Source: Nitrospirota bacterium
GTDB taxonomy: Bacteria > Nitrospirota > UBA9217
Reading direction: 5' to 3'
Length of the DNA stretch: 64,000 nucleotides
NCBI GenBank assembly: GCA_963751455.1
Contig: CAVVUN010000001.1
Span: 512,001-576,000, forward strand
Below, in pieces: positions 33,563 through 46,360 of this stretch. A model generated the notes under the pieces. That model ran no database searches. It was not told the origin of the DNA and was given only the letters and a program-made list of their open reading frames with translations. Numbering within the stretch: position 1 is the first letter of the stretch; each line of letters opens with the position of its first letter. The translations under genes and the position numbers were made by a program.

Positions 33563-33593
33563 AACCTTTAGAACCTTTAGAGAACCTTTAGGG

Positions 33594-34463
33594 TCAAGTC
33601 TTTTTTGTTGCATTTTCGTATTCACGAAGCCAGCGGCTGATCGTCGAGTAGTGGACGGCCACATGACGGGCAAGTTCACTCTGATGATAACCGTATTTTT
33701 CCACGGCCTCGGACACCTTTTTCATCAGTTTGCGATGATTGTTCATGGCCGAGTCGGGCAGCAAAACGGCAAGCGACGGTCGAGTCGAATATCGCTGACT
33801 CCGGGGAATTTCGGGAATGTCCTTGTGCTTTTTGAGATAATCCGTAAGCTTATCTACGAAATCGTCCTCACCTAAAAGCGCTTGGCCTCGCACTTCCGTC
33901 CAGATCGTCTTCTTTCCAATACCCCACTGAACGAACTGGCGATACTCTTTTTCCGCTTTATCTCGTTTTCTGCTGAATTGACCGAGCACCCAGTCCTTTG
34001 TGAGGCAGGGATGAGGTTCTGCCTTACCCGCCGTCGCAAGGTAACTGGACCACTTCCAGTCTTCCGGCGCTTCGACCATCTTTGCTCTTACCGGATTTAG
34101 AACCACATATCGGCAGACCTCAAGGAGATGACTGTCTTTCTGGATCAAGATGGCCTTATACCGGCCCTGGAATAAATGCCCGGACCTTCCGTGATACTTG
34201 TTGAAAAGTTGCGTATAGACGCCGTTCAATTGGCGCATACCGAGAGAAAGATTGCCTTCCGGGGTCTCGATAAGAAGGTGGTAATGATTTGTCATGAGGC
34301 AATACGCATGACAGATCCAATTGTACCGCTTGTTGACGTGCTGGACCGTGTTCAGGAAGTTTTCGCGGTCCTGGTCGTTTTTGAATACGGACTTCTTCTC
34401 ATTGCCACGGGATGTTACGTGATAGACCGCACCGGCATATTCTATTCTTAGAGGTCGGGCCAT
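33594..34463 (-). CDS. REP-associated/IS200-like Y1 tyrosine transposase with C-terminal HTH
   Basis: YHVTSRGN, LMTNHYHLL (HUH), GHLFQGRY, RYVVLNPVRA, WSSY. Confidence 0.9.
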   Translation of the reverse strand: MARPLRIEYAGAVYHVTSRGNEKKSVFKNDQDRENFLNTVQHVNKRYNWICHAYCLMTNHYHLLIETPEGNLSLGMRQLNGVYTQLFNKYHGRSGHLFQGRYKAILIQKDSHLLEVCRYVVLNPVRAKMVEAPEDWKWSSYLATAGKAEPHPCLTKDWVLGQFSRKRDKAEKEYRQFVQWGIGKKTIWTEVRGQALLGEDDFVDKLTDYLKKHKDIPEIPRSQRYSTRPSLAVLLPDSAMNNHRKLMKKVSEAVEKYGYHQSELARHVAVHYSTISRWLREYENATKKT

Positions 34464-34469
34464 GGGGCG

Positions 34470-34498
34470 ACTGTAGCAGAAATCAGAATAAAATGCAA
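34470..34498 (-). promoter_or_regulatory. Transposase promoter, probably leaderless; -35 lies inside the TIR
   Basis: TTGCAT-17 bp-TACAGT-6 nt-ATG, conserved in copy 2. Confidence 0.55.
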
Positions 34499-34597
34499 CG
34501 AAAAAGACTTGACCCTAAAGGTTCCGTTAGCGTTAGTAAAATTGATGGAACTAACAAAAAAATGTAAAATGCAATATCTGCCATATCATTTTTCCCG

Positions 34598-35394: not shown

Positions 35395-38055
35395 TTATCG
35401 TCGATCTATAGAATATGAATAAGATCCACTGGCGGAACCACAACCCATGTTGTTACAACCTATGAATCTGAGCTTAGTCCTCTTGAATTGTCCTGGATTA
35501 GCATAGTACTGAAACGTCCCCGATGGCCCGCTGATTGAACCGTCATTAGATGATGGAGTCGGTGCAGATGGCGTGCTAGGCGTACTGCCGTCATACGTGT
35601 TGACCATCGTATAATAAATTGTCGTGGCACCGCTACTGCCGACGCTGATATTCTGCGGAGATGACGTCCAGCTGCCGCTGGACGGGCTTACCGCGACACT
35701 GCCCGGCACTGTCCTTAAGTCTATCGAGTATGAGTACGATCCGCTTGCTGGTCCGCACCCCGCACTATTGCAACCTATAAACCGGAGCTTGGTTCTCTTG
35801 TGCTGATCAGAGCTTGCGTACAACTGAAACGTTCCGGAAGCTCCGCTGATTGAACCGTCGTTCGAAGAGGGTGACGGCGCATCAGGATCAGAAGGCGCAC
35901 TGCCGTCATACGTGTTGACCATCCTATAATAAATTGTCGTTGCGCCGCTACTGCCGACGCTGATATTCTGCGGAGATGACGTCCAGCTGCCGCTGGACGG
36001 GCTTACCGCGACACTGCCCGGCACTGTCCTTAAGTCTATCGAGTATGAGTACGATCCGCTTGCTGGTCCGCACCCCGCACTATTGCAACCTATAAACCGG
36101 AGCTTGGTTCTCTTGTGCTGATCAGAGCTTGCGTACAACTGAAACGTTCCGGAAGCTCCGCTGATTGAACCGTCGTTCGAAGAGGGTGACGGCGCATCAG
36201 GATCAGAAGGAGTACTGCCGTCATACGTGTTGACCATCCTATAATAAATTGTCGTTGCGCCGCTACTGCCGACGCTGATATTCTGCGGAGATGACGTCCA
36301 GCTGCCGCTGGACGGGCTTACAGATATGCCAGCCGGTATGACTTCAGAATTGACAATAACAGTGTAGTTAACAATATTACTCATCTTACCTGAACTATCC
36401 GCACCCCACCAGGTATAGGTTCCAGCCGGTCGATCCGAAGGTATCGTGTAAGTGATGGAAAACGTTCCATCTGGTTTAATACTCTGCGAAAGAGTTGGGA
36501 ACTCTGAGCCATCGGGCTTCTTAAAATGAAGCACAGCTGTGCTGTTGGGAGTGAAACCTGTGCCCCACTGCGACACTGTATCGGCCTGCTTCGCCGTCAT
36601 CGGAGTCTGAGCAACTGTCGGGGATACTGTTATGCTATCGACAACGGAAAGGACGAAATTCTTCTCTGCTTTTTGTGAATTATTATCGTAAACTTGCACT
36701 GTAAACTGATAAGTTCCGGTATTTGTGGGTATTCCTGAAATCTCACCGCTTGCACTTAAGCTTAGACCTGTTGGCACTATACCGTCAGAAAGTTTCCATG
36801 AGTATGGCCACGAGCCACCTAAAGCTGAAAAACGGAAGTAATGGTAAGCGCCGACTTTACCAACAGATAGAATCTTCGACGTTGAAATTGATATTGGAAG
36901 AGGCTGCGACAAATTGTCAACAGAGATAGCACTATCTCGCTCTGCAATATCACCACTTGAGTCGGTTACAGCTACTGTGAATTGGTAGGTGCCTTGTTGT
37001 GAAGGAGCGCCAGAAATTACACCATCCTTTGATAATGAAATCCCGGGAGGCAGATTGCCTTTAGCAATTGACCATGTATATGGTGGAGTGCCGTCAACTG
37101 CGGACAAAATAAGACTAAAAGCGTTGCCAACAATTAATGACGGGCAATATGACAAACTCCCTTCAACTATACCAACCTTAAAATTCTTATCCTTTTTCGT
37201 AACGCGCAGACCGATTGCTTGGCCACCATTACCCGGAAGCTTACCAACACGCTCCCATTCATCAAGAAAGCTTTTCCTTGTAAAACTCCGTTTATGAGCA
37301 TACGTTTCATATAGCCAGGTCCGTCCGGGATCATTAGCATAAACATAATCTTCGTCAATCCCTACAACTAGCATCCAATGTTGGACGCTCCCTTGCTTCA
37401 TTGTCCCCGGAATCGAGTTATTACCTCCTTGGGAAGAAACTACAACTAAGACAGGGTTTCCGTCTGCTAATTCAGAACGTAGCGCTTCTAATGTTGGCTT
37501 TATGTACTCAACGCTAAAATTACCCTCTTTCTCTAACAACTGTTTCATCTGTTTGTTGTCCGTATAGTCGCCGGTGTATTTATCTCTTCCATATCTTGGT
37601 GGATTATAACCGTCAATATTAGAAATATTGTCAGGATATTGGGGACCCATCCAATCGATCATATTTTTCAGATTTGACCATGCAGTGTCATGATTCGGCG
37701 CGATATCGATGTGATAATGAAATGCTTTTAGCATCAAATAGCTTGCAGGCCCACAGTTCACATTATTTCCATCCGGGCCAGATTCAAATTGAGATATATA
37801 GGGAACATCAAGCGTTTGGCTATCCTTCTTTAATGCGTGCGGCGCCAAAACGGTTTTCGAATAAGTTGAATTTGTCGCGCTATTACCAACAACAGCAACA
37901 AGATCATCATGACTGACTATAACTGCTCCCGCCAATTGAGGCCCATCATCTATAGGATCGCCACTACCGCCACCGTTATGACAAGAAATTAGCAAAAGAC
38001 CAAATAAGAGGAAAAATATGATCCTTCTAACGAGTCTATATTTTTGTCTCATCAA
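35395..38055 (-). CDS. Lipoprotein: C39-like cysteine peptidase + two putative Ig domains + three 105-aa FN3/chitobiase-like repeats
   Basis: LISC lipobox; VPYISQ..NCGPAS..HWMLVVG..NDP; G.LP.G.SLS..G.ISG.P repeats. Confidence 0.78.
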   Translation of the reverse strand: MMRQKYRLVRRIIFFLLFGLLLISCHNGGGSGDPIDDGPQLAGAVIVSHDDLVAVVGNSATNSTYSKTVLAPHALKKDSQTLDVPYISQFESGPDGNNVNCGPASYLMLKAFHYHIDIAPNHDTAWSNLKNMIDWMGPQYPDNISNIDGYNPPRYGRDKYTGDYTDNKQMKQLLEKEGNFSVEYIKPTLEALRSELADGNPVLVVVSSQGGNNSIPGTMKQGSVQHWMLVVGIDEDYVYANDPGRTWLYETYAHKRSFTRKSFLDEWERVGKLPGNGGQAIGLRVTKKDKNFKVGIVEGSLSYCPSLIVGNAFSLILSAVDGTPPYTWSIAKGNLPPGISLSKDGVISGAPSQQGTYQFTVAVTDSSGDIAERDSAISVDNLSQPLPISISTSKILSVGKVGAYHYFRFSALGGSWPYSWKLSDGIVPTGLSLSASGEISGIPTNTGTYQFTVQVYDNNSQKAEKNFVLSVVDSITVSPTVAQTPMTAKQADTVSQWGTGFTPNSTAVLHFKKPDGSEFPTLSQSIKPDGTFSITYTIPSDRPAGTYTWWGADSSGKMSNIVNYTVIVNSEVIPAGISVSPSSGSWTSSPQNISVGSSGATTIYYRMVNTYDGSTPSDPDAPSPSSNDGSISGASGTFQLYASSDQHKRTKLRFIGCNSAGCGPASGSYSYSIDLRTVPGSVAVSPSSGSWTSSPQNISVGSSGATTIYYRMVNTYDGSAPSDPDAPSPSSNDGSISGASGTFQLYASSDQHKRTKLRFIGCNSAGCGPASGSYSYSIDLRTVPGSVAVSPSSGSWTSSPQNISVGSSGATTIYYTMVNTYDGSTPSTPSAPTPSSNDGSISGPSGTFQYYANPGQFKRTKLRFIGCNNMGCGSASGSYSYSIDRR
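35398..36325. repeat. Three 315-bp intragenic tandem repeats
   Basis: ATGACGTCCAGCTGCCGCTGG recurs at 35661, 35976 and 36291. Confidence 0.9.
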
Positions 38056-38435: not shown

Positions 38436-39851
38436 TCATTGACTGGTCAATAAAACACACGGAACGATTGCGTTGGTCATCACCGGATTATATGAGGAGC
38501 GGGTCCAAGTCACTCCGTCCGGGGATGTAGCATAACCGATGTTGTCTTGGGTTCCTACCTGATACCAATACCACATTTTGTACAGACCACCATCGAAAAT
38601 GACATTTGGAACGATTGCGTTCGTCATTACCGGATTATGCGAAGAGCGGGTCCAAGTCACTCCGTCCGGGGATGTAGCATAACCGATGTTGTCTTGGGTT
38701 CCTACCTGATACCAATACCACATTTTGTACAGACCACTATCGAAAATGACATTCGGAACGATTGCGTTCGTCATTACCGGATTATGCGAAGAGCGGGTCC
38801 AAGTCAATCCGTCCGGCGATGTAGCATAACCGATGTTGTCTTGGGTTCCTACCTGATACCAATACCACATTTTGTACAGACCACCATCGAAAATGACATT
38901 TGGAACGATTGCGTTCGTTATTACCGGATTATGCGAAGAGCGGGTCCAAGTCACTCCGTCCGGGGATGTAGCATAACCGATGTTGTCTTGGGTTCCTACC
39001 TGATACCAATACCACATTTTGTACAGACCACTATCGAAAATGACATTCGGAACGATTGCGTTCGTCATTACCGGATTATGCGAAGAGCGGGTCCAAGTCA
39101 ATCCGTCCGGCGATGTAGCATAGCCGATGTTGTCTTGGGTTCCTACCTGATACCAATACCACATACTGAAAACCTTGCCCGTAGCTTCAGGTGTGGTACT
39201 CGTCACCGTTAAGGTATAGGATGTCGTTGAATTATCAGCGGCGGTAACTGTATATAAGACCGGATTTGTGAAGTCGTTCGGCGTTGTACCACTTACCTGA
39301 ATCGCAGAACCAACTTTGACGTTTGCGCCTGTTGTCGTAAAGGTTGCGACGAGTGCGGTAACATTCGTACCATTCGGGACAGTGATGGAGATTGTCTTTG
39401 CTGTTTCATTTATCGATCCTGTTGCAGCAGGGTTTGTGAATGAGAACGCTGTAAGGGCTTTTGCTGAACTGGAGGCTATCGTCACAGTCACAGTGTATGT
39501 TGCAGTTGAGTTATCAGCGGCAGCAACCGTATATGAAACCGGATTTGTGAAGTCGTTCGGCGTTGTACCACTTACCTGAATCGCAGAACCAACTTTGACG
39601 CTTGCGCCTGTTGTCGTAAAGGTTGCGACGAGTGCGGTAACATTCGTACCATTCGGGACAGTGATGGAGATTGTCTTTGCTGTTTCGTTTATTGTTCCTG
39701 TTGCTGCAGGGCTTGTAAAAGAAAAGGCAGTGATTGTTTTTGAACTGTCCGAGTTGCCTCCTCCTGTGCTCGTATTGTTATTTCCGCTGCAAAAAGACAA
39801 AGCAACGCCAACCATTAACATAAAGAAAGCCCATACCATACGTCTAAGCAT
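38436..39851 (-). CDS. Lipoprotein with two Ig-like (DUF5018-like) domains and a five-repeat Asp-box beta-propeller
   Basis: LSFC lipobox-like; two ~94-aa repeats; five 49-aa repeats with SPDG.TW. Confidence 0.78.
   Translation of the reverse strand: MLRRMVWAFFMLMVGVALSFCSGNNNTSTGGGNSDSSKTITAFSFTSPAATGTINETAKTISITVPNGTNVTALVATFTTTGASVKVGSAIQVSGTTPNDFTNPVSYTVAAADNSTATYTVTVTIASSSAKALTAFSFTNPAATGSINETAKTISITVPNGTNVTALVATFTTTGANVKVGSAIQVSGTTPNDFTNPVLYTVTAADNSTTSYTLTVTSTTPEATGKVFSMWYWYQVGTQDNIGYATSPDGLTWTRSSHNPVMTNAIVPNVIFDSGLYKMWYWYQVGTQDNIGYATSPDGVTWTRSSHNPVITNAIVPNVIFDGGLYKMWYWYQVGTQDNIGYATSPDGLTWTRSSHNPVMTNAIVPNVIFDSGLYKMWYWYQVGTQDNIGYATSPDGVTWTRSSHNPVMTNAIVPNVIFDGGLYKMWYWYQVGTQDNIGYATSPDGVTWTRSSYNPVMTNAIVPCVLLTSQ
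38461..39165. repeat. Five near-identical 147-bp intragenic tandem repeats
   Basis: MWYWYQVGTQDNIGYATSPDG.TWTRSSHNPV.TNAIVPNVIFD.GLYK x5 (last unit partial). Confidence 0.92.
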
Positions 39852-39929
39852 TTTCTGGTTCTCCTTCTGGAAGTTAAGCGGTCATTGTCCGCTTGTACTG
39901 CTGGTTGGCACAGAGCGGTATTTTGCCGG

Positions 39930-39988
39930 AGCCAACGCGCGGGTGTGGGGCGCGGTTCGCAGCGACCCACACGACCCGCTTGTTGAAG
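39930..39988 (-). other. attC site
   Basis: CTTCAAC-AAGCGGGTCGTGTGGGTCGCTGCGAACCGCGCCCCACACCCGCGC-GTTGGCT. Confidence 0.75.
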
Positions 39989-40024
39989 CGATTTTATGGG
40001 ATGCAATAAAGTTATTTTTACGCG

Positions 40025-40366
40025 TTATCCTATCGGAGAGTCCACTTTATTGAGAATTGGTCGTCGCCCATGTATACTTGTAAATTGATTTAACCAAGTT
40101 CTTTCAAGTTTAGGTAGGTTTTTTGGATTGTAGATTGCAAAGTAGAACCAAATCGCCTTACCTTCTAGTGTTGGATTTGTTTTTTCTGGATTGTCGAGGT
40201 GTTGCTGAAATCTAACGAATAAATTATCCGAAAGTCCAATATATAGGATGTCATTGTCAAACGTAGTAAGAACATAACAACCTGTCTCATTAGGTACTGA
40301 TTTAAACGATGCACGTTTAAAATGTACCTTGTCTTTTGGTAGCGGAATTAGTTCGGTGATCTTCAT
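40025..40366 (-). CDS. Stand-alone GIY-YIG nuclease family protein
   Basis: GCYVL..ILYIGLS.NL..R..QH..LE..N motif order; ATGA overlap with the upstream gene. Confidence 0.8.
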   Translation of the reverse strand: MKITELIPLPKDKVHFKRASFKSVPNETGCYVLTTFDNDILYIGLSDNLFVRFQQHLDNPEKTNPTLEGKAIWFYFAIYNPKNLPKLERTWLNQFTSIHGRRPILNKVDSPIG

Positions 40367-41502
40367 AATTCCATTTCTTTTTCCGTTTTAATGTCGGATT
40401 GTTTATGAAGCGCCTTCACCATTTCGCTATTTATCTTACTTAATGCGCCAGTATTTAAACCACTTGCAGTACCACTTTTCACCCAGAAATCTGTATGGCC
40501 AACTCCAGCTCCATCACCTTCAACATTTTCAAAAACATTTTCCAATAATGACTGCATCGTTGAAACTTTATAATCGGGCATATTAACCATCTTGTTGTAA
40601 AATGGAACGCAAAATTTAGAGAATAATTCAACTCCATTGTATTTGAATAGAACTGTTGGCTCACTATCGCCGAGAATGTTGGTAATAGCCTTCCAATAGT
40701 TCATGTAAATCCTATGTTGCCTGTCTTCCTTTTCTGTGTTGCAAACAGGATTATTTGCAACTAAAACATATTTCTTAATTGCTTTCACAAAACTCTTCTG
40801 ATTAATACTTCCATCACTATTATCATCATTGGCCATTTTAATTTTATTTTGCCAAGGACTGTCTTTGTCATTGTTTAAAAAATCTACATACTGTAGAGCT
40901 TTTTCATCTTCACCTTTTTGGACTGAATTGAGAATCCATTTTGGTAAATTTGGCGTATCATCGACACCCATTGCTTTTGTTAATCTCGCTCGGATTCTCT
41001 GAGCAACGCCTTCCTCAACACTTTTTTGTGTGGTATTAACAATGAGGAAGTGACACATTTGCGCAATCTCAGAAAGATTAACTGCAATATTGACAGATAC
41101 TTCAAATTCTAGAACACGAGGATCTTTATCAGCCGCCATTTTTAAACCTTCAACACGGTGTTGACCATCAACAACATTGAATGGCCCTACTTCATCGATG
41201 TCTATTTCAATGGTGTTATTATTCGGATGGAATGCTATATTTTTATCCGTTGCAATAAAAATGCTTGTCGGCAAAAATGCATCTTTAGTTTCTTGTCCCG
41301 CAACAATATAGTCGGCAAGCTTTTTTGCTCTTGACTTGTTTAGTAACCGCTGATAACCCTTATCACTAGCATTTTCAGGGTCGAGTCTCTCTATGCTATA
41401 AAAGTTCGGAATTATTAAATCTGAAACTTTTAATGATGTAGCGTAAAGGATCAGATCTCCTTGTTTTACCAAAGAGGCAGGTCTAACGATTTTCTTACTC
41501 AT
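40363..41502 (-). CDS. DGQHR-domain protein (DndB/ParB-like fold)
   Basis: GYQRLLN..R, P.SI, VVDGQHR, F..VNTTQK; ATG 41502 follows AGGAG. Confidence 0.85.
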   Translation of the reverse strand: MSKKIVRPASLVKQGDLILYATSLKVSDLIIPNFYSIERLDPENASDKGYQRLLNKSRAKKLADYIVAGQETKDAFLPTSIFIATDKNIAFHPNNNTIEIDIDEVGPFNVVDGQHRVEGLKMAADKDPRVLEFEVSVNIAVNLSEIAQMCHFLIVNTTQKSVEEGVAQRIRARLTKAMGVDDTPNLPKWILNSVQKGEDEKALQYVDFLNNDKDSPWQNKIKMANDDNSDGSINQKSFVKAIKKYVLVANNPVCNTEKEDRQHRIYMNYWKAITNILGDSEPTVLFKYNGVELFSKFCVPFYNKMVNMPDYKVSTMQSLLENVFENVEGDGAGVGHTDFWVKSGTASGLNTGALSKINSEMVKALHKQSDIKTEKEMEL

Positions 41503-41732
41503 ATTTTCATCTCTCCTTTTTAATGTGTCGGCAACAATACTTGTCTCAAAATCAACCAGTGTTTGATGGGACGGAAACCGCCCCGCCATTTCAGAAAATT
41601 CGGTAATGGCGGGGTGAAAATTAAATATTTTTGTTCAATAATGTAAACTTCTGCAACTGCGGTTTTCGCCTTGCCAAATACTGAATTTCGGAATTGGCAG
41701 GATAAAATTTCTGCAACTTTAAATGCAAATCG

Positions 41733-41761
41733 AGTATATTTTATGCATTATGGCCTGTCAA
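41733..41761 (-). promoter_or_regulatory. Near-consensus sigma70 promoter driving the cassette strand
   Basis: TTGACA-17 bp-TATACT. Confidence 0.75.
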
Positions 41762-41888: not shown

Positions 41889-41917
41889 TTGATAAGTGAA
41901 CATTTGTTCACTATATT
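41889..41917 (+). promoter_or_regulatory. intI promoter with a palindromic LexA-like box in the spacer
   Basis: TTGATA-17 bp-TATATT enclosing AGTGAAC-ATTT-GTTCACT. Confidence 0.7.
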
Positions 41918-41956: not shown

Positions 41957-43288
41957 TTGATTCTCATACGACCCGTGCAACCCATACCCAAAGATATTCT
42001 GGCTAAATTTGACGGCATTCTGAAACAACGGAATGTCCCCCTTTGCTCCCGATCCGATTACCGGAAGTGGCTGCTGTATTTTCTCGACTTCCGAGCTAAA
42101 TATCCTCTTCCGGAAGGCAAATCGGATCAAGTGAGGGCGTTCGCGGACAAGCTGCGGTCAAAGAATCAATCCTCCATGCAAATAGAGCATGCAGCTAAAG
42201 CGATTTCGCTGTTCTTTGCTTTGCAACAGGGAAAAAAGACTATTTCATCGTCGGCCGCCGCGCAGATTGCGCCTCCTGCAGCCGGGCCGCATTGCGGCCT
42301 ACAGGTAAAATACATCCAAGCACAGCAACTGTGCTCAACAACAGCGACGAAGGAATCCGAGATGGTTTGCGAGCCGCCGGCGCCCTCCGCGCCGTACACG
42401 CCCAGGATCCGGGGCGGCAAACACTACGATGAATGGCGCTGCCTCAAAAAAACCGAATCCCCGGCGTGGGACAAGGTCATTGAAAATCTTGCTGCGGAAA
42501 TAAAGCTGCGGCATTACTCTCGAAAAACGCTCAAGCATTATGCGGACTGGAGCCGCAAGTTCCAGAACTACCTGAAAGACAAACCACCTTCGGAATTGTC
42601 TCCATCGGAGGTGAAGGCGTACCTGACGTATCTGGCCGTGAACTGCAAGGTATCCTCAAGCCACCAGAACCAGGCGTTCAACGCACTCTTGTTTCTGTTC
42701 AGACATGTTTTAAAGACAGATTTCGGCATCCATAAGGACATCCCGCGCGCGAAGAAATCGAATTACATTCCCGTGGTTCTTTCCCGCGAGGAAATCGACG
42801 CTGTTTTGAGACATCTCGAATATCCATACAAGCTTGTGGCCCAACTCCAGTACGGCTGCGGGTTACGCATTTCGGAAGGCTGTAAACTGCGGGTGAAGGA
42901 TTTCAATTTTGACGCCGGCATTCTCACTGTCCGCGGAAAAGGCGATAAAACCCGCACCGTGCCTATTCCGCAAAGAATCGTGCCGGAGCTTCAGGCCCAA
43001 ATAGAGACCGTGAAAAAAATGCATGACGAGGATCTGGCAACAGGGTACGCAGGGGTTTTTCTCGATGATCAACTGGAGAAAAAATATCCACGAGCCGCGA
43101 AGGAGCTTGTCTGGCAATGGTTTCTCCCGAAGCAAACGTTAACCTTTGTTGCGGAAACGAAGGAGCGGCGGCGGTATCATCTTCATGACTCTCATGTTCA
43201 GGATGCGCTGAACGACGCCGTCAGGAGGGCAAAGCTCACTAAGCGCGTTACCTCCCACACCTTCCGTCACTCATTCGCGAACCTTTAG
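41957..43288 (+). pseudogene. intI: Integron integrase with long N-terminal extension, truncated after box II RH by the Y1 element
   Basis: HYSRKT..Y..W, QNQAFNALLFLF, PVVLS, YGCGLRISE, IntI-specific patch (LEKKYPRAAKELVWQWF..RRYHLH); ends HTFRHSFA with no LGH..TT.IY. Confidence 0.88.
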
Positions 43289-44157
43289 CGAACCTTTAGG
43301 AACCTTTAGGAACCTTTAGGGTCAAGTCTTTTTCGTTGCATTTTCGTATTCACGAAGCCAGCGGCTGATCGTCGAGTAGTGGACGGCCACATGGCGGGCT
43401 AGTTCACTCTGATGATAACCGTATTTTTCCACGGCCTCGGACACTTTTTTCATCAGTTTGCGATGATTGTTCATGACTGAGTCGGGCAGCAAAACGGCAA
43501 GCGACGGCCGGGTCGAATATCGCTGACTCCGGGGAATTTCGGGAATGTCGATACCCCACTGAACGAACTGGCGATACTCTTTTTCCGCTTTATCTCGTTT
43601 TCTGCTGAATTGACCGAGCACCCAGTCCTTTGTGAGGCAGGGGTGAGATTCAGCTTTACCCGCGGTCGCAAGGTAACTGGACCACTTCCAGCCTTCCGGC
43701 GCTTCGACCATCCTTGCTCTTACCGGATTTAGAACCACATATCGGCAGACCTCAAGGAGATGACTGTCTTTCTGGATCAAGATAGCCTTATACCGGCCCT
43801 GGAATAAATGCCCGGACCTGCCGTGATACTTGTTGAAAAGTTGCGTATACACGCTGTTCAATTGGCGCATACCGAGAGAAAGATTGCCTTCCGGGGTCTC
43901 GATAAGAAGGTGGTAATGATTTGTCATGAGGCAATACGCATGACAGATCCAATTGTACCGCTTGTTGACGTGCTGGACCGTGTTCAGGAAGTTTTCGCGG
44001 TCCTGGTCGTTTTTGAATACGGGCTTCTTTTCGTTACCACGAGAAGTTACGTGATAGACTGCACCGGCATATTCTATTCTTAGAGGTCGGGCCATGGGGC
44101 GACTGTAGCAGAAATCAGAATGAAATGCAACGAAAAAGACTTGACCCTAAAGGTTCC
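43280..44157 (-). mobile_element. Y1/HUH transposase element copy 2 with perfect 35-bp TIRs and 4x AACCTTTAG
   Basis: GGAACCTTTAGGGTCAAGTCTTTTTCGTTGCATTT / AAATGCAACGAAAAAGACTTGACCCTAAAGGTTCC. Confidence 0.8.
43322..44095 (-). CDS. Y1 tyrosine transposase, copy 2 with a 32-aa in-frame deletion
   Basis: Near-identical to 33594..34463 but lacks GKKTIW...KKHK. Confidence 0.85.
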   Translation of the reverse strand: MARPLRIEYAGAVYHVTSRGNEKKPVFKNDQDRENFLNTVQHVNKRYNWICHAYCLMTNHYHLLIETPEGNLSLGMRQLNSVYTQLFNKYHGRSGHLFQGRYKAILIQKDSHLLEVCRYVVLNPVRARMVEAPEGWKWSSYLATAGKAESHPCLTKDWVLGQFSRKRDKAEKEYRQFVQWGIDIPEIPRSQRYSTRPSLAVLLPDSVMNNHRKLMKKVSEAVEKYGYHQSELARHVAVHYSTISRWLREYENATKKT

Positions 44158-44196
44158 CCTTGGACTGCTAGTTGGCGTAGAGCGGTATTTTGTCGG

Positions 44197-44312
44197 AGCC
44201 AACTCGCCGGTCACTCGCCGCAAGGCGAGTCGATGTGGACCGGCAGGTGATATTTTTAACGCGACGCTGAGGGGCGCGTTTTCAGCGACCCTCTCGAGCG
44301 CTATGGTTAGAA
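44197..44312 (-). other. Two adjacent ORF-less attC sites (44254-44312 and 44197-44253)
   Basis: TTCTAAC..GTTAAAA then ATATCAC..GTTGGCT, both with internal dyads. Confidence 0.68.
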
Positions 44313-44437: not shown

Positions 44438-46360
44438 TTACGATCTAAATCTCTCACCAACAAGATGTATCGCCAGCTTTGCAAATTCATACAGATCCGC
44501 GTTATCCCGTTCAATTAATTTTATGCCTATTTCTGTAACTTCTGGAATAAGCAAGCAGAGAAATTTCCTTTTGTTATGTGCCATATCTCTTGATAAATTA
44601 AGTGCGGCAGTAAATAATTTATTTGCTTCGCCATAATTCGCTTCCAACAAGTAACACAACGCCAAGTTGTAAGATACTAGTGCGTCAGATAAACTAACTG
44701 ATGTTTGTTTTTGCGCTTTAATTAAGTACTCCTTAGCCTCCGAAATTTTGTTTAATGATAAATAAAGGTATCCGATATTGTTTAATACAGATACACTACT
44801 TTTCTTATCGCAAAAGGTAAGCGCTTTTCCCAAGTCACTGATTACCTCAAGTCGATAACCACCGTATTTGTCATTCCCGGTTTTAGCAAGTTCAAATTTT
44901 GTTTTTGAAAGGTTGTCATATACCGTAAAGCATCCCTTCATATTTGTTGACTTGCAGATTGTTATTGCTTTTTGTAAATCTATACAAGCTTCTTCTAGCT
45001 GCCCTATGTTAGATAAAGATGCGCCTCTAGAACAAAGTGCTCCTGCATGATTTGGCTCATACGATAAAGCTTTATTGAAATATTTAATTGCCTGCGTATC
45101 GTCATCCGTTATTAGCCCCAACTGGTACCAAGCATTTGCATTATTTTCATCAAAGGATAATGCTTCGGTTAGTGCTTTTTTTGCGTAATCTTTTTGGTCT
45201 AAACTTTTCAAACAAATTGCTTTGCAGACATGATAGCTAGATTCACTGGACCTTATTTTTATTGCTTGATTAAATTGAAGCAATGCCTCTTGATAGTCAT
45301 CGTTGTCTAGAAGAAGTAATCCATAATGGAAATGGATGGAAGAACAACCGTTATTGAAATCCAGTCCTTTTTTATAGCAAATAGCAGCCTCGTCCTTTCT
45401 GCCCTGTTGCTCCAGTAGAATTGCTTTGTGATGCCATAAATATTCGTTTTTTTCATCAATTTTAATTGCATCATTTAAGCAGTTTATGGCTAAATCTTTT
45501 TCATCTTGCTGAGTAAAAATTTCTGCTTTTAAAATTAATAATTGCACGTCGGAACTATGATCTTTTATTAATTCGTCAAGAAGCTTCTTTGATTCCTCAT
45601 ATTTCTTTAAATTGACCAGTATCTGTATTTTTTGGTAATAATAAAAAGAGGTTAATGTAATATTATATTTTTTGGACGCTTTTTCTATTTCGTTCACACA
45701 GACCCGGAACTTAATTTCGTCATCTGTGGTTATCTTACTTCCACTATTTTTAAGTTCTGAAAATGTTACAAGGGACTCTTTGACTTCTTTCTCAATATAA
45801 TCTTTTTCAGGAAATACCAGTTTCATAAATGCTTCTTCAACCAGCGGCTCAACTTTCTTCAGTTCGTTAGTCAATATTTCTCTTAGATTCTTGGGATCAC
45901 TATATTTATATCTGACATACATTTGATCTTTCACGTCTGAGAAGTCCTTGTCCATGTCTATCAGTGCAACAGGAGGTTTCTTCATCGGCTCTTTCATAAA
46001 GCTCTGAATATCAATACATGCTTTTTGTTCCAGCAGCACTATACAAGGCTTGCGAAGTCCAACCAGAATTCCATATTCAAATATAACATTCGGCCTAAAA
46101 CCATCCAAAATTATGATCGCTAACGAGCATCTATTTAAAAAATCTAGAAGCTGAGAGTATTGACTGTGGCCAGGTATTCCATGGATTGAAAGTCTTTTTG
46201 TATCATATTTTCCTGTTGCTTCTAATACTGTTTCAATGGCATCAAGCGTGATCGCAATATGCGGCTCTCTAGACGAATAAACAATGAAACATGTTTTTGT
46301 TGATTCTTTATGCATGTCTAGTCGTATTTGCATGTAGTGAACAATTTTTGTTTCATCCAT
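44438..46360 (-). CDS. TIR-like/nucleoside-deoxyribosyltransferase-like domain + TPR repeat protein
   Basis: N-terminal CFIVYS...RPNVIFEYG.LVGLRKP.IVL; many C-terminal TPR units. Confidence 0.72.
   Translation of the reverse strand: MDETKIVHYMQIRLDMHKESTKTCFIVYSSREPHIAITLDAIETVLEATGKYDTKRLSIHGIPGHSQYSQLLDFLNRCSLAIIILDGFRPNVIFEYGILVGLRKPCIVLLEQKACIDIQSFMKEPMKKPPVALIDMDKDFSDVKDQMYVRYKYSDPKNLREILTNELKKVEPLVEEAFMKLVFPEKDYIEKEVKESLVTFSELKNSGSKITTDDEIKFRVCVNEIEKASKKYNITLTSFYYYQKIQILVNLKKYEESKKLLDELIKDHSSDVQLLILKAEIFTQQDEKDLAINCLNDAIKIDEKNEYLWHHKAILLEQQGRKDEAAICYKKGLDFNNGCSSIHFHYGLLLLDNDDYQEALLQFNQAIKIRSSESSYHVCKAICLKSLDQKDYAKKALTEALSFDENNANAWYQLGLITDDDTQAIKYFNKALSYEPNHAGALCSRGASLSNIGQLEEACIDLQKAITICKSTNMKGCFTVYDNLSKTKFELAKTGNDKYGGYRLEVISDLGKALTFCDKKSSVSVLNNIGYLYLSLNKISEAKEYLIKAQKQTSVSLSDALVSYNLALCYLLEANYGEANKLFTAALNLSRDMAHNKRKFLCLLIPEVTEIGIKLIERDNADLYEFAKLAIHLVGERFRS

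Follow-up and report, generated by a model that had tools for sequence, protein, structure and literature searches.

Several anti-phage systems are described as sensing modified DNA through a ParB fold: GmrSD, BrxU and SspE, whose ParB-fold domain recognises marked DNA, hydrolyses NTP in response and switches a nuclease on (PMC10952713); TgvAB, a two-gene version with overlapping genes (PMC11014532); and Dazbog, a two-gene DUF262 system that is toxic upon expression of a phage methylase and is presented as answering phage methylation, possibly abortively (10.1101/2022.08.27.505566). The motifs QR, DGQxR and FxxxN are reported as the three motifs of both DGQHR and DUF262 domains (PMC4619093; PMC12065111). 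An integron cassette of V. cholerae with a DndB-type first ORF, HPY05_15170-15175, is reported to protect against phage (10.64898/2026.03.17.712381). DndB and DpdB themselves are portrayed, in the accounts available, as a regulator or modification helper and not as sensors. The concept of an NTPase sensor joined to a nuclease is already established, and ParB-fold sensors drive effectors of the HNH, HEPN, PD-(D/E)XK and Toprim types. A GIY-YIG partner of such a sensor was not found in the literature searched. Nor did the full-text literature, which leaves subscription papers uncovered, yield a paper on a DGQHR + GIY-YIG system; candidate tables could list the pair.

Such a pair occupies the first cassette of an integron in the window (the whole 64,000-nt stretch of Nitrospirota DNA that was analysed). 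The features are:

40363-41502, minus strand: DGQHR-domain gene P0001, 379 aa, with an N-terminal ParB/Srx-fold domain (residues ~1-160) followed by an all-helical C-terminal domain
Within P0001: motifs QR at residues 51-52, DGQHR at 112-116 and FxxxN at 152-156
40025-40366, minus strand: minimal GIY-YIG nuclease gene P0002, 113 aa, without a separate DNA-binding domain
40363-40366, minus strand: ATGA stop/start overlap of P0001 and P0002
39936-41555, minus strand: integron cassette of 1,620 bp, in first position directly at attI
39930-39988, minus strand: attC of 59 bp, R'' CTTCAAC and R' GTTGGCT, bottom-strand hairpin of -19.2 kcal/mol
41550-41568, minus strand: attI core, with the crossover between G and TT at 41556/41555
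41733-41761, minus strand: promoter TTGACA-17-TATACT, the integron cassette promoter Pc, part of the platform and not of the cassette
41957-43288, plus strand: integron integrase gene intI, divergent, cut after HTFRHSFA by an insertion element, with the last ~50 residues missing

We propose, at roughly even odds (about 50%), that the pair is a split GmrSD/SspE-like anti-phage nuclease that carries out modification-dependent cutting with a GIY-YIG domain in place of HNH. The DGQHR protein, predicted to bind NTP and DNA, would sense foreign and probably base-modified DNA, gripping it with its helical domain and hydrolysing NTP; physical contact would then bring in or activate the minimal GIY-YIG protein. 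This second protein is predicted to nick or cut the sensed DNA, which would protect the cell from phage. Since no cognate methylase is encoded, self and non-self would have to be told apart by a mark or structure absent from host DNA.

The pair is real and uncharacterised. P0001 scores 113.4 bits against TIGR03187 (DGQHR; cut-off 58.85) and 56.2 bits against PF14072 (cut-off 29.1) and, judged by these scores and by its QR, DGQHR and FxxxN motifs, it is a member of the DGQHR family. P0002 passes the PF01541 GIY-YIG cut-off (32.5 bits against 22.6), adopts the fold of that superfamily in its model and carries the set Tyr/Tyr/Arg/His/Glu/Asn, residues that we take to be catalytic. The sequence-only reading had described an AT-rich pair of DGQHR and GIY-YIG genes joined by an ATGA overlap, and every part of that description stands: the pair has a GC content of 0.36 in a genome of 0.51, both proteins exceed their family cut-offs, and the overlap and both reading frames had been placed exactly. 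The overlap suggests translational coupling. PADLOC 2.0 calls no known system on the two proteins. The top matches of P0001 are DpdB (7.5e-17) and DndB, and those of P0002 are weak GIY-type matches; Dazbog, Menshen and PD-T4-2 give no match to the pair at E<=1, Dazbog models presumably being included in the library. Sequence searches of the PDB returned nothing useful (best E 0.44), and atlas searches brought back only DndB-like and GIY-YIG clusters.

The pairing of the two genes is near-obligate. A protein search picked out 1,959 relatives from 4,547 candidates, and identity in the best 120 is 79-100%. The family comprises 85 loci (1 from a genome, 80 from metagenomes and 4 from plasmids); in 80 of them a GIY-YIG gene lies directly behind the DGQHR gene, and in the other five the sequence ends 0-93 nt past the match. 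A lack of joint conservation, which would have counted against the defence idea of the sequence-only reading, is clearly not what is seen. Junctions in the 80 loci are ATGA (66), GTGA (4), TTGA (1), a one-base overlap (5), a 5-nt gap (1) or a broken first gene (3). Both genes are present in all four viral loci with room for them; single-protein scans found one locus among genome contigs and none among viral contigs. Identities of the two genes co-vary (r=0.79 over 62 non-redundant pairs), which shows co-inheritance only. Named carriers are a deltaproteobacterial MAG, Panacibacter, Patescibacteria, Cupriavidus, Sinorhizobium and Rhizobium, locus GC ranges from 0.30 to 0.67, the pair also occurs on large plasmids and viral contigs, and none of 400 sampled genomes of the host phylum has it. 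This distribution appears wide yet patchy, resembling that of mobile defence genes.

In the reverse direction, five of nine plasmid matches to the GIY-YIG protein sit behind a DGQHR gene, three are orphan copies from Rhizobium, and one is a distant Haloferax gene without partner. The two Rhizobium orphans that were read share flanks, one being frameshifted and the other having an altered N-terminus, and the third was matched in two pieces. The GIY-YIG frame of the Haloferax plasmid (L136, 2971-3315) carries no annotation, stands alone and has genes for a repair exonuclease and an ATPase downstream of it. Elsewhere, 1.3 kb separates the pair from tet(X) and an IS982 transposase in one metagenome contig (L024, 2928-5101), and in two viral contigs (L123, 5997-8324, minus strand; L124, 7397-9100, minus strand) a further DGQHR frame, distantly related, lies next to the pair on the other strand.

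Both proteins are strongly conserved where the proposed activities would require it. Across 80 distinct rows that reach down to 56% identity, residues Q51-R52, D112/Q114/H115/R116 and F152/N156 of P0001 do not vary, and G113 of DGQHR is kept in at least 95% of the rows; G29-C30-Y31, Y42, G44, R52, H56, E88 and N106 of P0002 are likewise invariant across 72 rows that reach down to 41%. Values of dN/dS for the two genes are 0.004-0.04 and 0.04-0.13 in three of four pairs, the fourth being saturated, and indicate purifying selection on both.

The AlphaFold model of P0001 (pLDDT 85) has a ParB-like N-domain and is all-helical from residue 164. Its highest structural score is to ParB 5k5d_B (Z 7.6, rmsd 3.4, 121 aligned), and the top rows are ParB, PadC, KorB and sulfiredoxin; BrxU (Z 4.4, rmsd 4.8, 111 aligned) and SspE (Z 4.4, rmsd 4.2, 122 aligned) score lower, and Foldseek gave no match to the model at E<=0.001. 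In the whole-model comparison the helical C-domain was without a clear structural match; ParBDB is described as having an eight-helix domain like GmrSD-M/SspE-M behind its ParB domain (PMC12065111). The model of P0002 (pLDDT 93) contains no further domain and matches a plant Grx N-domain (2lwf, E 6.7e-5) and the UvrC N-terminal domain (1yd6, E 4.5e-4). A predicted 2:2 complex scored 0.38 (runs 0.48, 0.00 and 0.38) against 0.00 for the best of three controls, so that the complex prediction suggested by the sequence-only reading came out above its controls but with one of three runs at 0.00. Of 157 solved complexes 116 reach the mark applied, as do 2 of 215 mismatches, and passing scores at or below 0.60 belong to only 18 of the 157 solved complexes plus both passing mismatches. 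Contact agreement between runs is at least 50% and partner pLDDT at least 79, and the prediction lends weak support to a physical 2:2 complex.

Fusions bear on how the two halves may cooperate. A profile search of 1.84 billion representatives, of which the best 150 of 1,739 were considered and 22 scanned for domains, yielded P0299, a single 524-aa chain that joins a DGQHR part (33% identity to P0001) to a GIY-YIG domain of the P0002 subfamily (32% to P0002), and P0322, in which the DGQHR part (27%) is fused to an HNH nuclease in the GmrSD layout. Among the 22 scanned, HNH was seen only in P0322, a distant relative. Each of the two is a one-member cluster on a long branch inside the wider clade in a quick tree of 46 hand-chosen rows. 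Other DGQHR relatives carry N-terminal Mrr_N, DUF5655, DUF7662 or HARE-HTH domains (HARE-HTH in P0319 and P0330), and HARE-HTH is described as recognising modified-base DNA (PMC10853773). Extensions of at least 80 aa occur in 19 of the 120 best matches, a minority that excludes P0001, and most are unnamed; where present, these optional domains would add DNA contacts. Because the nuclease is without a DNA-binding domain, is sometimes fused to the sensor and is sometimes swapped for HNH, it would be the cutting half of a split enzyme, and the fusions to HNH and to modified-DNA readers lean towards a GmrSD-like DNA-sensing restriction enzyme.

Two candidates were dropped, P0315 as a second fusion (a frameshifted read-through) and the apparent extensions in L052 and L044 (chance open frames), and a weak search among 7,996 candidates gave no longer, fused GIY-YIG forms. 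In a sister clade (P0260-P0307) the DGQHR proteins are 370-400 aa long, show 30-37% identity and carry the same motifs; a viral scan for its partners gave only known loci and distant matches.

How far the likeness to described systems goes can be set out case by case. With GmrSD, BrxU and TgvAB, the pair shares a ParB/Srx fold bearing QR, DGQxR and FxxxN, a helical domain behind it, a nuclease that is fused or on the next, overlapping gene, the lack of a cognate methylase, and a place beside RM genes. Those systems, however, combine DUF262 with a DUF1524 HNH domain, whereas the pair combines DGQHR (TIGR03187/PF14072) with GIY-YIG: P0001 scores 21.2 bits against PF03235 (GmrSD_N, DUF262), below the 33.2 cut-off, its motif reads DGQHR and not DGQQR, and its partner is GIY-YIG in place of DUF1524. 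SspE resembles the pair in fold class (Z 4.4) and in its NTPase-to-nuclease layout, but it needs sspABCD and a host mark, and a search of the host for SspD-like PF01507 gave only one weak, unrelated match. Dazbog, Menshen and PD-T4-2 also pair a ParB-fold first gene (DUF262, without DUF1524) with a separate effector gene; their partners, in the descriptions available, are not said to be GIY-YIG, and P0001 falls short of Dazbog on both the PADLOC search and the PF03235 score. DndB and DpdB belong to the same DGQHR family and are the best profile matches of P0001, but it lies far under their equivalog cut-offs (DpdB 57 against 300 bits, DndB 25 against 328) and outside dnd/dpd clusters. The V. 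cholerae cassette is likened to the pair by description only; its second ORF has no identified homologues in the available text of its paper (10.64898/2026.03.17.712381), whereas that of the pair is GIY-YIG.

Filamentous phage PfAC19 and Providencia plasmids carry a different unit (L086, 4965-6944; L087, 4959-6829), in which a gene for a ~300-aa protein without a Pfam family lies behind a distant DGQHR gene of ~330 aa. The two partner proteins are 27% alike, and the DGQHR genes (25-27%) were left out of the family because of their other partner. The unit is possibly of the type of the tested V. cholerae cassette.

The surroundings of the pair also point to defence. From 76 loci (9 near-duplicates excluded), 59 have flanking ORFs, 206 in total, of which 148 were scanned with NCBIfam and 130, from 53 loci, with PADLOC. 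Matches include type I, II, IIG and IV restriction genes, a type III-like REase, AbiE, ThsB, SIR2- and REase-Argonaute, BREX-like genes, HerA and WYL, and some generic kinases and helicases. PADLOC matched 43 of the 130 scanned neighbours. The control consists of 17 stretches of 7 kb, chosen arbitrarily in the host and in its family and not matched to the loci by taxon. Against it, the excess per ORF is 43/206 against 9/116 with unscanned ORFs counted as misses (p=0.002); per locus, neither RM genes (15/59 vs 1/17, p=0.10) nor any PADLOC match (29/59 vs 4/17, p=0.09) reaches significance. The pair is probably linked to defence islands.

Phosphorothioation genes were looked for as well. Among the 130 of 206 neighbours scanned with PADLOC, dnd, ssp and pbe models had no match. 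The host genome (100% complete) lacks dndC, dndD and dpdA, so that the absence of such genes noted earlier for the window extends, for these three, to the whole genome; dndE gave no match there, and its control likewise matched nothing. P0001 is the host's single PF14072 gene, and dndC is absent from five other carriers (two whole or partial genomes and three plasmids). The earlier idea of a nucleotide-sensing NTPase plus nuclease, acting in anti-phage defence or as a toxin-antitoxin module, is therefore kept in part: a conserved, dnd-independent two-gene module of NTPase fold and nuclease beside defence genes is borne out by the 80 of 85 paired loci and by the PADLOC neighbours, but the HNH and modified-DNA-reader fusions favour GmrSD-like DNA sensing over a nucleotide-pool sensor or a classical toxin-antitoxin.

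Several points weigh against our reading of a split, modification-dependent nuclease. P0001 is, by its profile scores, DGQHR/DndB-like and not DUF262, and DndB and DpdB of its family act as regulator or helper; the fold scores to BrxU and SspE are low, and the helical domain finds no clear counterpart; one of three complex runs gave 0.00; both fusions are single sequences on long branches; the defence excess does not reach significance by locus; reader-type N-terminal domains are a minority that excludes P0001; and 120 clusters at 79% identity or more are, in our judgement, unusual for a gene that chases phage marks.

Rather unlikely, though the best placed of the alternatives, is an abortive-infection or toxin-antitoxin module, in which the DGQHR protein would restrain the GIY-YIG protein and free it on infection, when host DNA would be damaged and the cell would stop; the trigger could be altered nucleotide pools, a phage protein or, as for Dazbog, DNA methylation. 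The gene order and coupling, with the larger gene first and a small nuclease second, suit such a module, and with no DNA-binding domain to itself the nuclease could lack specificity. Precedents are the toxicity of Dazbog when a phage methylase is expressed (10.1101/2022.08.27.505566) and the stand-alone GIY-YIG (URI) nucleases near dnd loci, which have been proposed as suicide back-ups (PMC10853773). The decayed look of the orphan copies on three Rhizobium plasmids fits as well, but one orphan (L134) retains Y, Y, R, H, E and N. The GIY-YIG frame is also whole in the three loci (L014, L051 and L075) with a broken DGQHR gene, where assembly errors are possible, and the single-chain fusion P0299 suits activation better than a degradable antitoxin.

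We consider it improbable that the trigger is the shape or topology of DNA, with a ParB-like clamp loading on incoming plasmid or phage DNA (ends, gaps or small circles) that the GIY-YIG protein would nick. ParB, PadC and KorB as the nearest solved folds, the closeness of P0002 to the UvrC and plant Grx N-domains, and the strong conservation, which fits an invariant target, all speak for it, but the HNH and HARE-HTH fusions indicate a modification-reading lineage and the pair is itself carried by large plasmids and viral contigs. About equally improbable is a role outside defence, as a DndB/DpdB-like modification helper, a repair nuclease or a selfish homing unit: the top PADLOC matches and the inclusion of UvrC and homing enzymes in GIY-YIG would suit it, but dndC, dndD and dpdA are missing from the host and dndC from five other carriers, the scanned neighbours are without dnd/dpd genes bar a low-ranked DpdJ match on one generic helicase, 0 of 400 sampled host-phylum genomes speaks against housekeeping genes, no two sites share their flanks, and the GIY-YIG protein is without a site-recognition domain.

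The split-nuclease reading might be widened, doubtfully at present, to a type IV restriction class in which a DGQHR/ParB nucleotide switch reads a phage mark and licenses a separate GIY-YIG nuclease, with swappable reader domains. If so, sensor, reader and nuclease would be exchangeable modules, the sensor being wired to HNH elsewhere, and the unusual conservation seen across phyla would imply that the target is a phage mark or DNA structure that is common and does not vary. The pair would explain what DGQHR proteins do when they stand alone outside dnd clusters, and a modification-specific nuclease might be derived from it. At 1.5 kb, methylase-free and already packaged as a cassette, it is directly testable in E. 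coli.

The pair had been assigned to the intI-proximal position with an attC downstream, and this is what the cassette boundaries give: the unit lies first at attI and is closed by the 59-bp attC with its R''/R' boxes and hairpin. Two more integron platforms (C2 and C3) are present in the host genome, and similarity to them runs from intI through the promoter and ends at CAAACACTG directly before GTTG, which places the attI crossover at 41556/41555. A 1,685-nt contig from another run matches 39934-41556 exactly with unlike flanks, an independent reading of the cassette ends; platform contigs from other runs end at 41552-41554, and two contigs that span the attI joint in other runs, with fewer than 31 letters on one side, were left uncounted. 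The near-consensus promoter noted upstream does exist (11 of 12 consensus positions) in a region where promoter-like sites are not enriched (10 found against 6.5 +/- 2.4 in shuffles). Its assignment to the cassette was rejected: it lies outside, and because both hexamers are identical in C2 and C3 it is taken as Pc. The first position of an array is described as the best expressed (10.1101/2024.07.02.601719).

The integrase gene (292 bits against TIGR02249, cut-off 265) is truncated by an insertion element, which the sequence-only reading had missed. The integrase of a relative extends ~50 residues past the truncation point and includes a tyrosine, presumably the catalytic one. The other two intI copies of the host genome are likewise interrupted, although assembly error is possible, so the array may be frozen. 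An attC-like site lies downstream in only 1 of 62 other loci of the pair (0 of 124 shuffles), and the integron would thus be one vehicle among many, its setting incidental.

Further attC-like sites in the same orientation lie at ~34605, 35245, 38371, 44260 and 46482. A palindrome, AGTGAAC-ATTT-GTTCACT (41895-41912), covers the likely intI promoter (41889-41917) and is matched upstream of intI in four relatives; we take it to be a candidate LexA box of the GAAC-N4-GTTC type. At 39900-39935 and 44168-44205, gene-less 'cassettes' of ~35 bp, 86% alike, lie between GTTGGCT and GCCAAC, each behind an attC and followed by an incomplete attC. Among the other cassettes, a 640-aa gene (44438-46360, minus strand) with a weak nucleoside-deoxyribosyltransferase/TIR-like N-terminus and many TPRs is another candidate for defence in this array. 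Internal repeats mark two lipoprotein-like cassette genes (38436-39851 and 35395-38055, both minus strand), one with five 147-bp units and DUF5018 domains and the other with a C39 peptidase, Ig domains and 315-bp repeats. The insertion element (43279-44157 and 33571-34525) encodes a REP-associated-type tyrosine transposase (NF047646, above cut-off) and has at least five close copies in the genome, one of which cuts intI and abuts an attC remnant. Its terminal inverted repeats, which are not expected of this transposase class, are perfect over 35-36 bp, and one of its ends bears 10-bp GAACCTTTAG units in a run of variable length.
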